Below are positions 33,001 to 39,000 of a DNA stretch of 64,000 nt, in pieces; the first letter of the stretch is position 1; each line of letters begins with the position of its first letter. This DNA is from a virus (taxonomy: Duplodnaviria; Heunggongvirae; Uroviricota; Caudoviricetes): the IMG/VR virus record IMGVR_UViG_646311923_000012; one strand, 5' to 3'. The position numbers were made by a program.

Positions 33001-36000
33001 GTCCAGGTCACGGCGGCGCTTATCCGGTGGTTCTGCAATAATTTTTATTGCCAGCCGTCCGGACAGGCTTAATTTCAGCCGCTGCTGGCGAACAATAAGC
33101 GCCACAGCCCGGCGATAACGCTCACCGGCTTTTGATACAAAATATGTGCTGCCACGACGTCGCCAGTAGGTGTTCACCGTCGGCGGGTAAGGCAAAACAA
33201 ACTCTATACGCATCAGTAACCTCTTTTACCCGAGCACGCCGGTTGCAAAAGCGTGATCAAGAAAACGAAAAATTAAATCAACCTGGGAACCATGCTTTTC
33301 TTCGAACGCCAGCGGATCCGCATGAAGCTCGTTGTGATGCTCCCGACACAGCGGTAGCGTGAAAATATCGTGGGATTTTGTTCCCATTCCACCCTGACCA
33401 TGACCAATCAGATGATGAGGATCGTCCGCTGGCTTACCACAACACGCACACGGCTGTGTCTTTACCCAGCGTGTGTATTTCTCATTTACCCAGCGGCGAC
33501 GTTTAGGTCGTTTCATGAAGGATTCCGGAGACTCCGGATCAACGGCAATGCTGACCACCGTCTTTTCCTGTGGTGGGTTCTGTTGCTGGTGGGTGTGAGG
33601 CGGTAGCGCAATATTTTTTGTGCGCTGCTTCAGTATGCTGGTGGCGGTCTGTTCTCCCGGTATGATGTCGCTTTCACGGTATACGGAGCGGATTTTTTCC
33701 GCCGGTAATCCCAGAGAACGACGCGATACTGCCTCAGGTAATGCGTCCACCACCTGATTGCAGACTGCCCACCAGGATAATTCAGCCAGCGATAATTCCC
33801 GTTCCTGTATGCCATTCATTGCGTGGCGGATGACGTCAATCATCCATGCTGACAGGTTTTGTTGAGCAAGTTGCTCAAGTGATTCGGATGTCTGGTCGCG
33901 CAGCTGGTTGTCGCAGTGCCAGCACAACACCATCGCGCCGGTACCGTAACGATGTATGACAGTTTCGCTGTGATGATAATCACCATGAGGCCACTGGCAG
34001 GATTTAACGTGACGTAATAACCAGTCAGACAGTGCACCAGCGCCACCAGCAGCACGAATCACACGCTCATTGCTGAAAAATGGCAGTAATGATTTATCTT
34101 CCGCCAGCGGCTGGCGAACGGCAGGAACGACCCCGGACGGCAGATTACGCATGCTTTTCGGTTCAGACTCCACCAGCACCCTGCCGCCATGAAATACCCG
34201 CATGGATTCACGGCCTGGCTTAACGATAACCAGACCGAGTTCCGGTACCAGAACAGGTCGAAGTAATACCCGCACATTACCTCCAGATCCGTTGCTGGAA
34301 TGTGCGGGACGGACGCGGTGGCCGTTCGGAGTAAGGGAGCCTGACGGAGATTATCCAGTGACGGTAGTCGAGGCTAAGGGCTTTTTTAACCTCGCATCCG
34401 CGCCTGCGGTAACACTGAATGAGCCATTCGGCCTGTTCTTCAGTGCATGGGGGATGCTGGTACCAGTCAGATTTGAATGCGTGAAAACACCGTCCGCGCC
34501 TGCTGGCAAAGACGGCAGAATCATCAGAATTGTATAATTTGGTATCGTGCGCCATCGGTTGTCTCTGCTGGCGCAGCAGGTGCCAGTTGTTCAGGCTGGC
34601 GTGCGAATTGTAAACCAGAATGCCAGGAAAAAACAAAACCCGCCGAAGCGGGTTAAGTGCGGGTGCGTTGAGGATGCCTGACACATCAGAGGTGGCGAGG
34701 GATTTCTCCCCCGCCAGTCTCTTACTCCTCAGGTTCGTAAGCTGTGAAGACAGCGACCTCCGTCTGGCCGGTTCGGATTCGTACCTCGCAGAGGTCTTTC
34801 CTCGTTACCAGTGCCGTCACTATGACGGTTAAACAGATGACGATCAGGGCGATTAACATCGCCTTTTGCTGCTTCATAGCCTGCTTCTCCTTGCCTTTCG
34901 GCACGTAAGAGGCTAACCTAGATTTGCCGTTCATAGATTGAGCCTCAGATTAATGTTAAGCGTCTTGCAGGACGCGTAATGTTAACTGGGGCTTTTCTCT
35001 ATCTGCCGTTGGTGTTCATGCCCGAGGCAGATAGCCTCAAGCACCCGCAGCTATTCTACTTAACTTCCCATTACCTCGCCAATATGAAATCGGTCAGAAA
35101 GACAGACGTCCCATAAGGACAACAACGGAAAAAGAGATTTTGCTTGATGCTATTTACCTCTGCACCATGAAGTTGCGCCAAAATCCCAGTGGTGATAACA
35201 GGAATTTGGTTGTTGGTGATTGGGGAAAGAAGTACGTTAGACTGTGGGTTAGTTCATTGACATGATAGTTACCTGCCTTCAATTTCCTAAGCAAGCGATG
35301 TAAACGATAATCAATATCAAATGTATTGACAGGTAAAATAATAACGATGTACCTTTGCTGATAACATATATCAGTCTTAAATCATAATGGAGGTAGATAA
35401 AATAACTAAACACACACAACAAATTTTTTATCAGTGACATAGCATATCTTAAGCATCCTTTAATGCTCATGGGGAGAACGCATGACTAAACATATGGACA
35501 TTCATTGTCAAACACGCATATTTAACTCAATTAACCATGACACCAAATATAAAATATGTATTTTTACTCCAAAAAACATTAAAAAAAATAATGCAACTCT
35601 TTATATACTTGATGGGAATAGTGCCAACAATTACATTTCTGATATTCTGCCTGTTATTGATGCACTACCCAATCCACCAGTGTTAGTTACACTTGGTTAT
35701 GAATCTTGGAATAACCTTAGCATTCATCGCCGTGCTTACGATTATACTCCTGATGGTGAAAATGCTATTGTTGATAACTCTAAACCAGCATGGATCTACT
35801 TTACTGGTGGAGGAAGCCAGTCTTTCCGAGAATTATTACTAACTCAGATCATGCCATGGGTTAGTACTATTGCTCCGAACAGTTCCAGAATCGGTATATG
35901 GGGGCACTCGCTAGGTGCTATTTTTGTGCTTGATTGCTTAAAAAATAATTCATGCTTTAACTATTATTATATATCTGCACCATCACTTCTATGGCAGAAT

Positions 36001-39000
36001 GAAAGAATCATCAAGATAATTAAAGATGATATATCAGAATCAAAGCACACTAAAAGTATATGCTTGCTTAACGGAAATCTTAGCCTTGATTACTCCGCAT
36101 CTTTATATCCTGAAGCCATCAAAGCGGAATCTGTTTTGAGAAATATTTTGACAGAAAAATACAGTAATTTTTCTATTGTACAATTTCCAGAGCTCAATCA
36201 TCAGGAGACTTTCTCTGCTGCACTCTGGAATAGCATTATTCATTTCAGCATATAACAGAAAATATGTAATCACTTTATCAATCTAGCTAACATAACTGAT
36301 ATCAATCCTAATGGGTCTTTGAACATATTAAAAGATAACTTCTCATTTGTACATTGTTGTGTTCTTAGACCCATTTCAAAAATACTATTTTTTAGATACT
36401 AATAATTACATCCATTTAGCTATCTTCTAAATACTCCTCTCAGTTTCTTCATTGGAGCTGATTCAACTCCGGCAATGCATACTAGGATCATTTTATAAGC
36501 ATACAAACAACATCCAGACTGTGAATTATTGCTATTCATTTTCTATGTATCTGCTCTTTTCCCATCCACTGAAACACCAGAATCCAAAGGTTTCATGTTA
36601 TTTTCACTATTCCATCATTACTCCTGTGTAAAATATCAAAACTCGCTGCATCACTTCACTGTTACGGCACTCACTACAAATTATGTTCAATTGCCTGTCA
36701 TAGCGGCGTATTTCTCCGTCTGGTAATGACCAGATAAGGTCAGGATCAACCACAACCGGTTTCTTCAGTTTTGCCCTCGATAGTTTTTTGCGGGCGTTTT
36801 GCCAGTCCTTACGAGCCTGTTCAGATGGGAATAACCCGTAACCAGAGTTGTATACATCGCCACTGGCAACCAGCTCTCTGGCAAGAACGCTCATCAGATA
36901 TCTTGTCGCACCTGTCTTGGCTTCCAGTTGCCGTAACGTCTCGCGCCCACTCCGGCGTACTAGCTCAACAACCTGCCCTTTAATTTTTTCCCGCTCTTCC
37001 TGTGTAAATACTTTTGCCATAAGCGCCTCCGGCAATCACTTTTCCGATACAACACGGCGGGAAGAATCAGTAATCTGTCGAACAATATCCCGGTGCTTGT
37101 TCAGCTCCCGCAGCGCGGCGCAGACTCGCTCCCACTTCTGAACATCACTTTTCGCCCTGCGCAGCGCCAGGTTTGCCCTGCGAAGGGACGGAAAAATCAG
37201 CTCATCTGCTTGCGTTTCGGTAAACGATGGCAACGGCTGCACAATGTCCGCCACAGTTTCTGTTTTAATTTCTTCCTGTGTTGCGGCTTCCCGGACTGGT
37301 AACGCAGCACCTGCTGGCTGAGGAAAGGCCTTACCATCACTTTCCGTTACCAGCGCGGCTTTCGGCTCTGCTGGTAAATTATCGCCCGGCATGCAGTAAC
37401 GAAATTTACCGTTCTGATTAACGCGTGCCAGCCGCCCCGTTGCGGTTACCACCGCCAGCGTGGAAGCAACCTTGCGAGTACTGACACCGAACTTACCCGC
37501 CAGTTCCTCACACGTTTTAGCCCCATCCTGACCGATAAACTCAATCATCATGTCTGCGGTAACTTTTTGTTCGACCTCCCCGGTCAGCATATCCTGTGCT
37601 TCAGATTTTACTGGCCGCTCTTCGGTTACCCGGGATTCACCTTCGCCAGCCAGAAACCAGGTGTGACCAGTTTTATCAACGACGCCATTTATTTTGAGTT
37701 CCCACAGCTCGTTGACAGCCTCTTCACGACTGATTCCAAGGCGAGCTGCCACCACATGTGAAGAGGCTTTTTTCAGTGCTTTCAGTGCGTCAGATACGGT
37801 TTCCATTAAAATTTCCTCCGGACAAAATTACTTCACAACCCTCATATTGCTGACATTTGGACGCCAGCTATCCCAGTTAAACGTCACTCATCGACCACCG
37901 TTCATGGTCATGCGGTCCATAATCCTCTCACCAAGAAGTGTACTCATTGCGGCATGATTCAGGTTTGTTAACATCCCGACACTGCACAGTGATGCTGTCC
38001 GGCGATCAATTATCTGGTGTAATACCACCTGCTCGTTTTTCGTCTCCCGCTGAACGCCTATTTCATCCAGGACCAGCAAATCAACACTGCAAAGCTCCTG
38101 TAAAAATTTTTCCCCGGATTTGCCGTTGTCGTAGCTGTCATGCAACACGCTCATGACATCAGACACGGTGACGATAATCACGCTGCGCCCCTTCGCCATC
38201 AGCCGGTTACCCATCGCCGCTGCAAGGTGATTTTTCCCGGTGCCGGTTTTACCGCTGAACACAAAATTCGTGCACCCGGTCATCAGTTCGTCAGCTATGG
38301 ATTTGGCCTGGCTCAGCGCGTATTTTTGCCCGTCGTTCTGCACCTGATAATTCGCAAACGAGCATTTGCTGTGCAGAGGCTGGATGCCCGAACGATTCAG
38401 GATTTTTTCCACCCGCAACTGGTGATTCTGGCGGTTAATCTCCTCGCTGCGTTTTCGTCCTTCAGCAAGTTGCCATTCCCGCCACTCCTCCACCGTCCGG
38501 TACGGTGGAACCGACGCCTGTGGTGCAAGTCTGCGAATACGTTCAAGAACCCCGGCTGCCGCAATGTTTTTCATGCCACATCACCCCCTGAATCCCGGCG
38601 GAATTTCGGTATCCGGTTCAGAAATATGATTCACACAACGCTGGTTGTTCGTGCCGCTTACCGGGAGCAACCAGGGGTTTTCAAAATTCCGGTCCGGCCC
38701 AAAAAACGTCGTCGCTCGCTGAACAAATTCCGTTCCCGCTTTCCCGGTCGCCGCCAGGTATCTCGCGTAACGCCTCACACCATCCAGCATGGTCTCTGGT
38801 GGCACCCCCTCGCGCAATCTGGCCTTCCAGGCACTGAAAGCGGATTTCTTCGGGTTTGCCCCAGCACGCAACGGGTATTCCCGCCAGACCTGTTCGAACA
38901 CATCCGGATAATCCACTCGTCCCACAGACTGCCCGGTGCTTTCCGGGACTACCCGATCGGCTTCCCGCTGAATGGCGGAATCGGCTTCAGGCTGCTGCAG

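Follow-up and report, generated by a model that had tools for sequence, protein, structure and literature searches.

A hok/mok/sok cassette and a predicted IroE-family esterase gene side by side in an Sp4-like lambdoid prophage

Introduction

In the hok/sok (parB) locus of plasmid R1, the full-length toxin mRNA is closed by pairing between a 5′ element, tac, and a 3′ element, fbi, translation of hok is coupled to that of the mok frame, and the antisense RNA Sok consists of a 5′ tail and a hairpin (PMC9841398). HokW-type toxins are ~44% identical to the Hok of R1, and hokW-sokW of Sp5 (VT2-Sakai) is a functional type I toxin-antitoxin (TA) system, which needs RNase III and Hfq and leads to faster phage release after induction (PMC8621323). 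Such cassettes are known and well described, and intact hokD-type cassettes are common in lambdoid prophages. Here, a hok locus and the AT-rich gene beside it are described in IMG/VR record IMGVR_UViG_646311923_000012 (Caudoviricetes), of which a stretch of 64,000 nucleotides (nt), termed the window, was analyzed. The window carries a lambdoid prophage with most of its reading on the minus strand, and positions 27438-47000 are 99.1% identical to prophage Sp4 of Escherichia coli O157:H7 Sakai. The region probably consists of two independent elements that lie side by side in an Sp4/CP-933M-like prophage, a hok/mok/sok cassette and an esterase “moron” (an independent cargo gene).

For the second element, the closest described systems are the siderophore esterases. 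IroE, a single-domain alpha/beta hydrolase that opens enterobactin and salmochelin (a trilactone hydrolase) and is encoded in the iroBCDEN cluster (Protein Data Bank, PDB, 2GZR/2GZS), carries an N-terminal membrane anchor or signal. PfeE of Pseudomonas aeruginosa, BES/BesA of Bacillus and the fungal EstA/EstB belong to the same fold family and occur in other genomic contexts, and their substrates are Fe-enterobactin in the periplasm (PfeE), bacillibactin (BES) and fusarinines (EstA/EstB). Fes and IroD are the cytoplasmic esterases of enterobactin and salmochelin. IroE has a Ser189/His287 catalytic dyad, and Fes possesses a Ser-His-Glu triad and, in addition, a lid domain at its N-terminus (PMC10515146).

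Results

The hok cassette

The HokD-like open reading frame (ORF) that an earlier note on this DNA had pointed out is present and has the span of the mok frame in Table 1. The toxin matches Pfam PF01848 (E=3e-23, 81.6 bits versus a cutoff of 22) and PHROG 251, ‘MokW-like host killing’ (E=3e-33), and its coding sequence is identical, nucleotide by nucleotide, to that of K-12 hokD. The longer mok frame equals the annotated mokW coding sequence (CDS) of phage 933W in length and position, and in Sakai the mok/hok frame is ECs1080, a ‘phage maintenance protein’. Upstream, Rfam RF01794 (named ‘sok’, a model of the hok-sense leader with a gathering score of 59) is matched over its full length, positions 1-157, with 107.1 bits at 34872-35046 (minus strand), which covers the leader up to the hok ATG, and the transcript start predicted near 35046 coincides with the first position of this model. 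The hexamers of the hok promoter are kept in 933W hokW and BL21 hokD, and both hexamers of the predicted Sok promoter are identical in 933W hokW-sokW.

A search for mok/sok-like elements and fold-back structures, which the earlier note had proposed, recovered the RF01794 match, a Sok hairpin and a closed hok mRNA. The minimum free energy (MFE) fold of the predicted 419-nt hok transcript is closed by pairing of its 5′ and 3′ ends (z = -7.25), with none of 100 shuffles being as stable, and the paired elements correspond to tac and fbi, whose role in closing hok mRNAs has been described (PMC9841398). The predicted Sok RNA folds with z = -6.4 and is collinear with the annotated 71-nt sokW of 933W. 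Because its own promoter, mok frame, Sok gene, tac/fbi pairing and terminator are all present, this hok gene is not the orphan it had been taken for, and by its sequence the locus is a complete hok/mok/sok type I TA cassette.

Two further structures were seen near these elements. A terminator-like hairpin, TGTCCTTATGGGACG, with a T-rich tail lies at 35107-35121 (minus strand), just upstream of the hok promoter, and might insulate hok against read-through of early phage transcripts. A match to isrK at 34633-34714 (minus strand), over the fbi element and terminator of the hok 3′ untranslated region (UTR), reaches 27 bits versus a threshold of 50 and probably reflects a shared terminator-like structure only; it was dismissed together with the other weak Rfam matches in the region (snoRNAs), all of which are below threshold.

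Comparison with other hok loci

The mokW/hokW/sokW locus of 933W is 93.8% identical in nucleotide sequence over 86% of the locus and shares with that of the window the promoter, the mok frame, the Sok promoter hexamers, tac/fbi and the 51-aa (amino acid) toxin, and the published primers for hokW-sokW of Sp5 match the window exactly. The two loci differ in their placement, since hokW-sokW sits near the end of the 933W map whereas the window hok follows a Ren-like gene, and they also differ at the 3′ end beyond fbi, in the terminator and, slightly, at the Hok C-terminus. A further difference is confined to mok codons 2-6, where there are several base differences and the remainder of the leader is nearly identical; at the mok start (34915-34934, minus strand) the window reads MNGKSR, and 933W/BL21 read MLNTCR/MLDTCR. 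These variable codons lie opposite the single-stranded 5′ tail of Sok, and they could set the specificity of Sok/hok pairing among the 2-10 hok copies found per genome of E. coli strains that produce Shiga toxin (STEC). Relative to the R1 locus, the architecture and logic are the same (tac/fbi closure, mok-coupled translation, antisense Sok with 5′ tail and hairpin) and both match the same Rfam model, but the window mok is in frame with hok and the context is that of a prophage, not a plasmid.

The K-12 Qin prophage has the same Hok coding sequence (hokD, or relF), the same 3′ UTR with fbi, the same terminator and the same DUF968/Q-side neighborhood. Homology to the window cassette, however, reaches no further than 17 nt upstream of the hok ATG, and beyond this point relE-relB occupy the place of the promoter, tac, the mok start and the Sok gene. 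The K-12 relBE-hokD arrangement is therefore a derived, 5′-truncated state, and the window has an intact cassette of the ancestral type. In BL21/C41(DE3) an intact hok cassette lies directly beside the DUF977 gene.

The earlier note had described the order of genes as that of Qin without its relBE, and both parts of this description hold in part. The hok gene does lie beside a DUF968 gene, as stated, but the neighboring ORF that had been called Rem-like belongs to PHROG 1212, and K-12 rem, which is inserted downstream of hokD in Qin, has no match in the window. Likewise, relBE genes are absent beside hok, even when ORFs of at least 30 aa are considered. Four short ORFs of 36, 45, 46 and 63 aa lie upstream of hok; Pfam assigned none of them to RelBE or to any other family, and an indel disrupts the longest one in the other allele. 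The absence does not extend to the whole prophage, which has a PaaR2-PaaA2-ParE module (labeled RelB/RelE-ParE by PGAP) as its sole ‘relBE-like’ unit. This module adjoins the immunity region, 6.7 kb from hok and on the other strand, and its position and orientation are unrelated to those of K-12 relBE.

The esterase: family, fold and catalytic residues

The oppositely oriented alpha/beta hydrolase (GHSLG) of the AT-rich segment, also reported in the earlier note, was found as a 257-aa ORF on the plus strand. The protein is a ‘hypothetical protein’ in Sakai, occurs also in EDL933 and is assigned to PHROG 8493, of unknown function; under its accession or locus tag, or by topic, no mention of it was found in the searchable literature. 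The sequence search and structure prediction that had been suggested for it both lead to IroE. In a phmmer search of the PDB the best match is IroE (E=5e-26, residues 8-253); BES (9e-13), PfeE (1.5e-11) and fungal siderophore esterases rank next, and every match is a siderophore esterase. An AlphaFold2 model built from an alignment of 12 sequences has a predicted local distance difference test (pLDDT) score of 85.6 and a predicted template modeling (pTM) score of 0.89 (single-sequence AlphaFold gave a pLDDT of only 47 and was unusable) and shows a single-domain alpha/beta-hydrolase fold. Its top 29 Foldseek matches in the PDB are all siderophore esterases (IroE, PfeE, EstA/EstB, BES and an IroE-like protein of Shewanella), with IroE 2gzs at E=7e-19 and template modeling (TM) scores of 0.77/0.79; Fes comes next and is a weaker match (E ~1e-10, TM normalized to target ~0.47). 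PfeE, BES/BesA and EstA/EstB, which follow IroE directly in both searches, have 20-23% identity.

Four residues do not vary among the 12 aligned sequences, D44 (LDGN), R84 (RxYDYTP), S143 and H240. In the phmmer alignment (numbering of the crystal chain and of full-length IroE being offset by 40), Ser143 and His240 align with Ser189 and His287 of IroE. A role of IroE residues Asp90 and Arg130 was reportedly described by Larsen et al. in 2006, and the equivalents of all four IroE residues are invariant, so that the prophage esterase and IroE share a Ser-His dyad, an Asp and an Arg. Together, sequence and model place the protein in the IroE/PfeE siderophore-esterase family as an uncharacterized relative of the enterobactin/salmochelin esterase IroE. 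The wide choice of substrates left by the earlier note (siderophore, acetylated sugar or other ester) is thus narrowed in class by sequence, fold and catalytic residues. There are clear differences from IroE, to which identity is only 28-31% and which belongs to a siderophore gene cluster and has an N-terminal anchor or signal, whereas the prophage esterase stands alone in a cargo slot of 34% GC and has no anchor. If it is cytoplasmic, it would share its compartment and general reaction with Fes and IroD.

The missing N-terminus

Two features shared by all 10 of the nearest relatives are missing from the prophage esterase, namely a hydrophobic extension of 40-50 aa at the N-terminus and a conserved PLGxNIADxGS segment. 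Its N-terminus is hydrophilic (top Kyte-Doolittle 15-aa mean of 0.11 for windows starting in the first 40 residues and spanning 1-54), and an in-frame stop lies 6 codons upstream of the ATG. A hidden, longer N-terminus was considered and ruled out, as there are stops in all three upstream frames and no remnant of coding sequence. What is retained equals the soluble catalytic domain that was crystallized for IroE, with query residue 8 aligning with IroE residue 52. Because the signal or anchor is missing, the N-terminus is hydrophilic, no coding remnant lies upstream and the catalytic domain is retained, the protein is probably cytoplasmic and would have IroE-type chemistry.

Selection and distribution

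IMG/VR contains 19 prophage copies of the esterase gene in three allele groups (100, 92 and ~90% aa identity), and the 257-aa frame is intact in all but one of them. The allele groups are separated by pairwise synonymous divergence (dS) of 0.12-0.32, with ratios of nonsynonymous to synonymous divergence (dN/dS) of 0.16-0.25, and they all occupy the same slot. The esterase is hence a coding gene maintained under purifying selection and is not a recent arrival, contrary to the suggestion that it had been recently acquired. The 2.1-2.5 kb esterase segment is found, at a coverage of at least 80%, in 466-468 of 5,426 complete E. coli genomes (~8.6%), carriers including O157:H7, O26, O103, O45 and O145. 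In some strains the gene is flanked by the insertion sequence (IS) IS481, and in one locus there is an insertion between the esterase and a hok locus with a truncated leader.

Outside this cluster the lineage is isolated. None of the phage genomes in INPHARED has the esterase, with only a neighboring antirepressor remnant (see below) being matched, and there is no close relative among GTDB species representatives. An exhaustive HMMER search of 1.84 billion representative proteins gave 998 relatives at E<=1e-3 and nothing between the cluster of the esterase itself (at least 87% identity) and 31-33% identity. The nearest named relatives are alpha/beta hydrolases of Pantoea, and one 31%-identical relative adjoins two TonB-dependent receptors and a binding-protein/ABC transporter.

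A variable cargo slot

The GC profile that had been proposed for this region sets the esterase apart. The slot has 34.4% GC and the gene 34.5% (28% at third codon positions, GC3), versus 48-53% in the flanking phage genes and 51.6% in the window. In blastn comparisons with other prophages, the hok block is conserved up to 35101-35122 and the DUF977 block from 36629-36641. Between the same flanks, other prophages have nothing (C41/BL21), a QueH gene (NCTC9082), a SIR2-family gene (O55:H7 RM12579), DUF7167 and small ORFs (EC2), a Doc-family toxin or IS elements (including IS481), and among all occupants seen, the esterase alone is encoded on the opposite strand, i.e., opposite to the phage early genes. 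The view of the esterase as foreign-looking cargo is therefore borne out by its deviant base composition and its absence from related prophages with the same flanks, and on these same grounds the gene is classed as a moron. The Ren-like DUF977-hok interval may be a defense/accessory hot spot in E. coli lambdoid prophages.

The slot contains a noncoding remnant of the 5′ end of an antirepressor (ant) gene, and the left junction is not the same in the other esterase allele, which together point to repeated recombination at this site. On the other side, the spacer that separates the stop codons of the convergent esterase and DUF977 genes is ~85% conserved between alleles and is noncoding, since the alleles differ in it by indels of 1, 3 and 11 nt. 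The esterase was flanked by hok and DUF977 in each copy examined, and in all 19 IMG/VR loci and three further loci it is directly upstream of hok, even where DUF977 is only 72% identical. The hok block, on the other hand, occurs in >4,700 genomes, with many other neighbors or none. Because of this the arrangement is read as the outcome of one acquisition, into a slot prone to recombination, with later spread via the conserved flanks, and not as functional coupling of esterase and hok.

Between alleles that differ by a coding dS of 0.32, the region upstream of the esterase is ~90-95% conserved, i.e., more so than the synonymous sites of the gene. A GGGGAG Shine-Dalgarno sequence precedes the ATG, and the promoter scan gave only 9/12 promoter-like matches.

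Other features of the prophage

The features of the region and the main neighboring genes are listed in Table 1. Beyond the DUF968 gene, toward lower coordinates, follow RusA, then Q and then a gene for a CPBP/CAAX-type protease, which at 38% GC is a second AT-rich cargo gene and lies just downstream of the Q antiterminator. The NanS-p-like ORF is a second esterase cargo gene of the same prophage and is unrelated to the IroE-family esterase. The best Fur-box-like cluster of the window is at 23475-23499, in an AT-rich intergenic region ~450 bp from pchA, and consists of overlapping 16/19, 14/19 and 15/19 matches. Above the Rfam gathering score there are two small RNAs, STnc100 (138 bits), beside three phage tRNA genes, and DicF (77 bits).

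Table 1. Coordinates of the hok cassette, the esterase unit and other features of the window.
Feature	Position	Strand	Remarks
hok promoter	35053..35082	-	-35 TTGGCG, 18-nt spacer, -10 TAGAAT; promoter scan
Full-length hok mRNA, predicted, ~419 nt	34628..35046	-	leader, mok/hok coding region, 3′ UTR, terminator
tac element, 5′ GGGUGCUUGAGG	35035..35046	-	pairs with 34661-34673 in MFE and centroid folds
fbi element, CCUCAACGCACCC, 3′ UTR	34661..34673	-	complementary to tac with one bulge; kept in K-12 hokD
mok frame, 70 aa	34722..34934	-	ATG at 34934; in frame with hok, shared stop
hok toxin CDS, 51 aa	34722..34877	-	identical to K-12 HokD; Pfam PF01848, PHROG 251
Sok promoter, predicted	34891..34919	+	-35 TTGCCT, 17-nt spacer, -10 TAACCT; read from sequence
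Sok antisense RNA, predicted	34926..35000	+	single-stranded 5′ tail, long hairpin, U-rich 3′ end
Intrinsic terminator hairpin of hok mRNA	34637..34654	-	T-run down to ~34628; terminator scan; conserved in K-12 and BL21
Variable cargo slot	35102..36628	.	between conserved hok block and DUF977 gene; AT-rich esterase unit inside
ant gene 5′-end remnant, noncoding	35145..35230	-	76-82% identical to ant of Stx phages; PGAP partial pseudogene at equivalent position
AT-rich esterase upstream region	35229..35481	+	promoter-like hexamers, GGGGAG Shine-Dalgarno, Fur-box-like match
Predicted IroE-family serine esterase, leaderless, 257 aa	35482..36255	+	GHSLG; same protein as WP_000160654 and Sakai ECs1077
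AT-rich noncoding spacer, esterase stop to convergent DUF977 stop	36256..36606	.	31% GC
DUF977 / Ren-like exclusion protein gene	36607-37035	-	Pfam PF06163 E=4e-27; PHROG 142; Sakai ECs1076; conserved right border of slot
DUF1627 gene	37036-37806		
Replication genes	37888-39807		highest coordinates of local gene order
92-aa conserved phage ORF	34277-34555	-	between hok and DUF968; PHROG 1212 E=6e-36; PGAP ‘hypothetical protein’ WP_001341388
DUF968 gene	33226-34275		downstream of hok
CPBP/CAAX-type intramembrane protease gene	31511-32335	-	PF02517 E=1e-19; Sakai ECs1085
616-aa ORF, SASA-family carbohydrate esterase, NanS-p-like	27561-29411	-	Sakai ECs1088
PchA ORF	23949-24263	-	protein 100% identical to Sakai PchA (ECs1091), regulator of the enterocyte effacement locus (LEE)
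PaaR2-like helix-turn-helix protein, PaaA2 (63 aa), ParE (95 aa); type II TA module	41227-42134	+	PaaA2 PF21217 E=6e-19; ParE PF05016 E=3e-17
STnc100/DicF Rfam hits	29634-29824, 29904-30150, 43806-43857	-, -, +	

Discussion

The explanation proposed for this region builds on its observed anatomy and homology, on the fold and catalytic residues of the esterase, on the purifying selection acting on this gene and on the variability of its slot. In the cassette, a stable hok mRNA of ~419 nt would be made from its own promoter and would be kept translationally inert, as long as it is full length, by the pairing of 5′ tac with 3′ fbi, and trimming of its 3′ end would make mok and hok translatable. 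A short-lived Sok RNA, from a promoter inside the mok/hok leader, would bind the leader and lead to its cleavage by RNase III, thereby blocking the synthesis of Hok, a predicted 51-aa toxin of the inner membrane. TA function was demonstrated for the 94%-identical hokW-sokW locus (PMC8621323), and by analogy the window locus would work in the same way. The esterase moron would occupy the interval from the Ren-like DUF977 gene to the hok promoter, as an AT-rich unit of opposite orientation that has an upstream region of its own. As we infer from sequence and model, for substrate, cellular location, expression and benefit to the lysogen alike, it would provide a cytoplasmic enzyme whose Ser143-His240 dyad hydrolyzes ester bonds in an enterobactin-type siderophore (a catecholate trilactone) or in its breakdown products, and the lysogen would gain an extra route for siderophore or iron handling. 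The specific proposal that ECs1077 is a cytoplasmic IroE-type hydrolase altering the processing of catecholate siderophores in lysogens of enterohemorrhagic E. coli (EHEC) is put forward tentatively, as a possibility that is rather less likely than the explanation as a whole. Such an enzyme might release iron independently of Fes from enterobactin or xenosiderophores, or yield linear dihydroxybenzoylserine (DHBS) products.

Several points weigh against the explanation of the region as a TA cassette beside a siderophore-esterase moron. Expression and toxicity of the window copy of hok/sok are carried over from its homolog. The esterase scores below the gathering threshold of Pfam PF00756 (Esterase; 17 versus 22 bits, E=0.005) and has no match in NCBIfam, and its identity to characterized esterases is only ~28-31%, so its substrate could differ. 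Its neighbors are hok/sok and the phage DUF977 gene, with no genes for siderophore synthesis or uptake beside it. A candidate Fur site at 35300-35318 was rejected, as it matches at 15/19 positions, a score of 14/19 is reached in ~15% of shuffled versions of the AT-rich island and the site carries a mismatch in the other allele, and the terminator scan downstream of the esterase stop found no convincing terminator. In some O26 strains (e.g., NC_013361, O26:H11 11368) the gene is split by IS1203/IS629, and a frameshift affects one IMG/VR copy (770 nt, 7 stops); the esterase is therefore dispensable. As regards the family assignment, the low PF00756 score is taken to reflect a divergent lineage and is outweighed by the PDB and structural evidence.

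Among the alternatives, the one that survives best is that the esterase combines the IroE fold with activity on an ester other than that of a siderophore, possibly as defense or counter-defense cargo. Such a role would fit with the SIR2, QueH and Doc-family genes found among the slot occupants, with the low identity to characterized enzymes, with the lack of linked siderophore genes and of a convincing Fur box, and with the isolation of the lineage, which has nothing at 33%-87% identity among the 1.84 billion representatives. It is nevertheless considered unlikely, because PADLOC has no match to the esterase, siderophore esterases account for 29/29 of the best matches by structure and for every PDB match by sequence, and the equivalents of the four IroE residues do not vary.

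A second alternative is that hok/sok and the esterase form one functional module, in which the TA system stabilizes the cargo or membrane damage by Hok is coupled to the esterase. The constant position of the esterase upstream of hok in the 19 IMG/VR loci and three others, even next to a divergent DUF977, would be expected of such a module. Yet the hok block is present in thousands of genomes with varied neighbors or none, the two units have opposite strands, separate predicted promoters and different composition, and their linkage is explained by a single acquisition into the slot and recombination in the conserved flanks. The module is thus regarded as quite improbable.

Still less probable is that the esterase ORF is a functionless, decaying vestige of an iroE-like gene for a periplasmic protein, truncated at its 5′ end. 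The signal or anchor and the PLGxNIADxGS segment, which are kept in all relatives, are indeed missing, and the IS-split O26 copies and the frameshifted IMG/VR copy could be seen as further decay. Against this are the low dN/dS in three allele groups with a frame intact in 18/19 copies, the conserved Shine-Dalgarno sequence and upstream region, the correspondence of the retained part to the crystallized soluble domain of IroE and the lack of any leftover N-terminal coding sequence upstream.

Lastly, the idea that hokD is an orphan toxin without its relBE regulators, replaced by recent foreign DNA in the form of the esterase, would accord with the missing relBE and with the AT-rich, inverted esterase segment, but it is hardly credible given the full set of leader, mok, Sok promoter and hairpin, tac/fbi and terminator, the truncated state of the K-12 relBE-hokD junction, the empty-slot prophages in which DUF977 and not relBE abuts the hok promoter, and esterase alleles that have diverged to a dS of up to 0.32 in the same slot.

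The explanation as a hok/mok/sok cassette and a separate esterase moron offers no new kind of system, and its import is modest. The hok/sok part was already known, and the assignment of the esterase is the new part. The result for hok corrects a tempting misreading, in that the K-12 relBE-hokD arrangement, and not the locus described here, is the degenerate form. In addition, the interval between the Ren-like gene and hok is flagged as a hot spot for cargo, which includes the esterase, QueH, SIR2, Doc and small ORFs. Assignment to the IroE/PfeE family of a protein that has no export signal provides a hypothesis on iron handling in EHEC lysogens that can be tested cheaply. If it is true, ECs1077 would be a lysogenic-conversion gene for iron acquisition, carried on Sp4-like prophages beside pchA and NanS-p.

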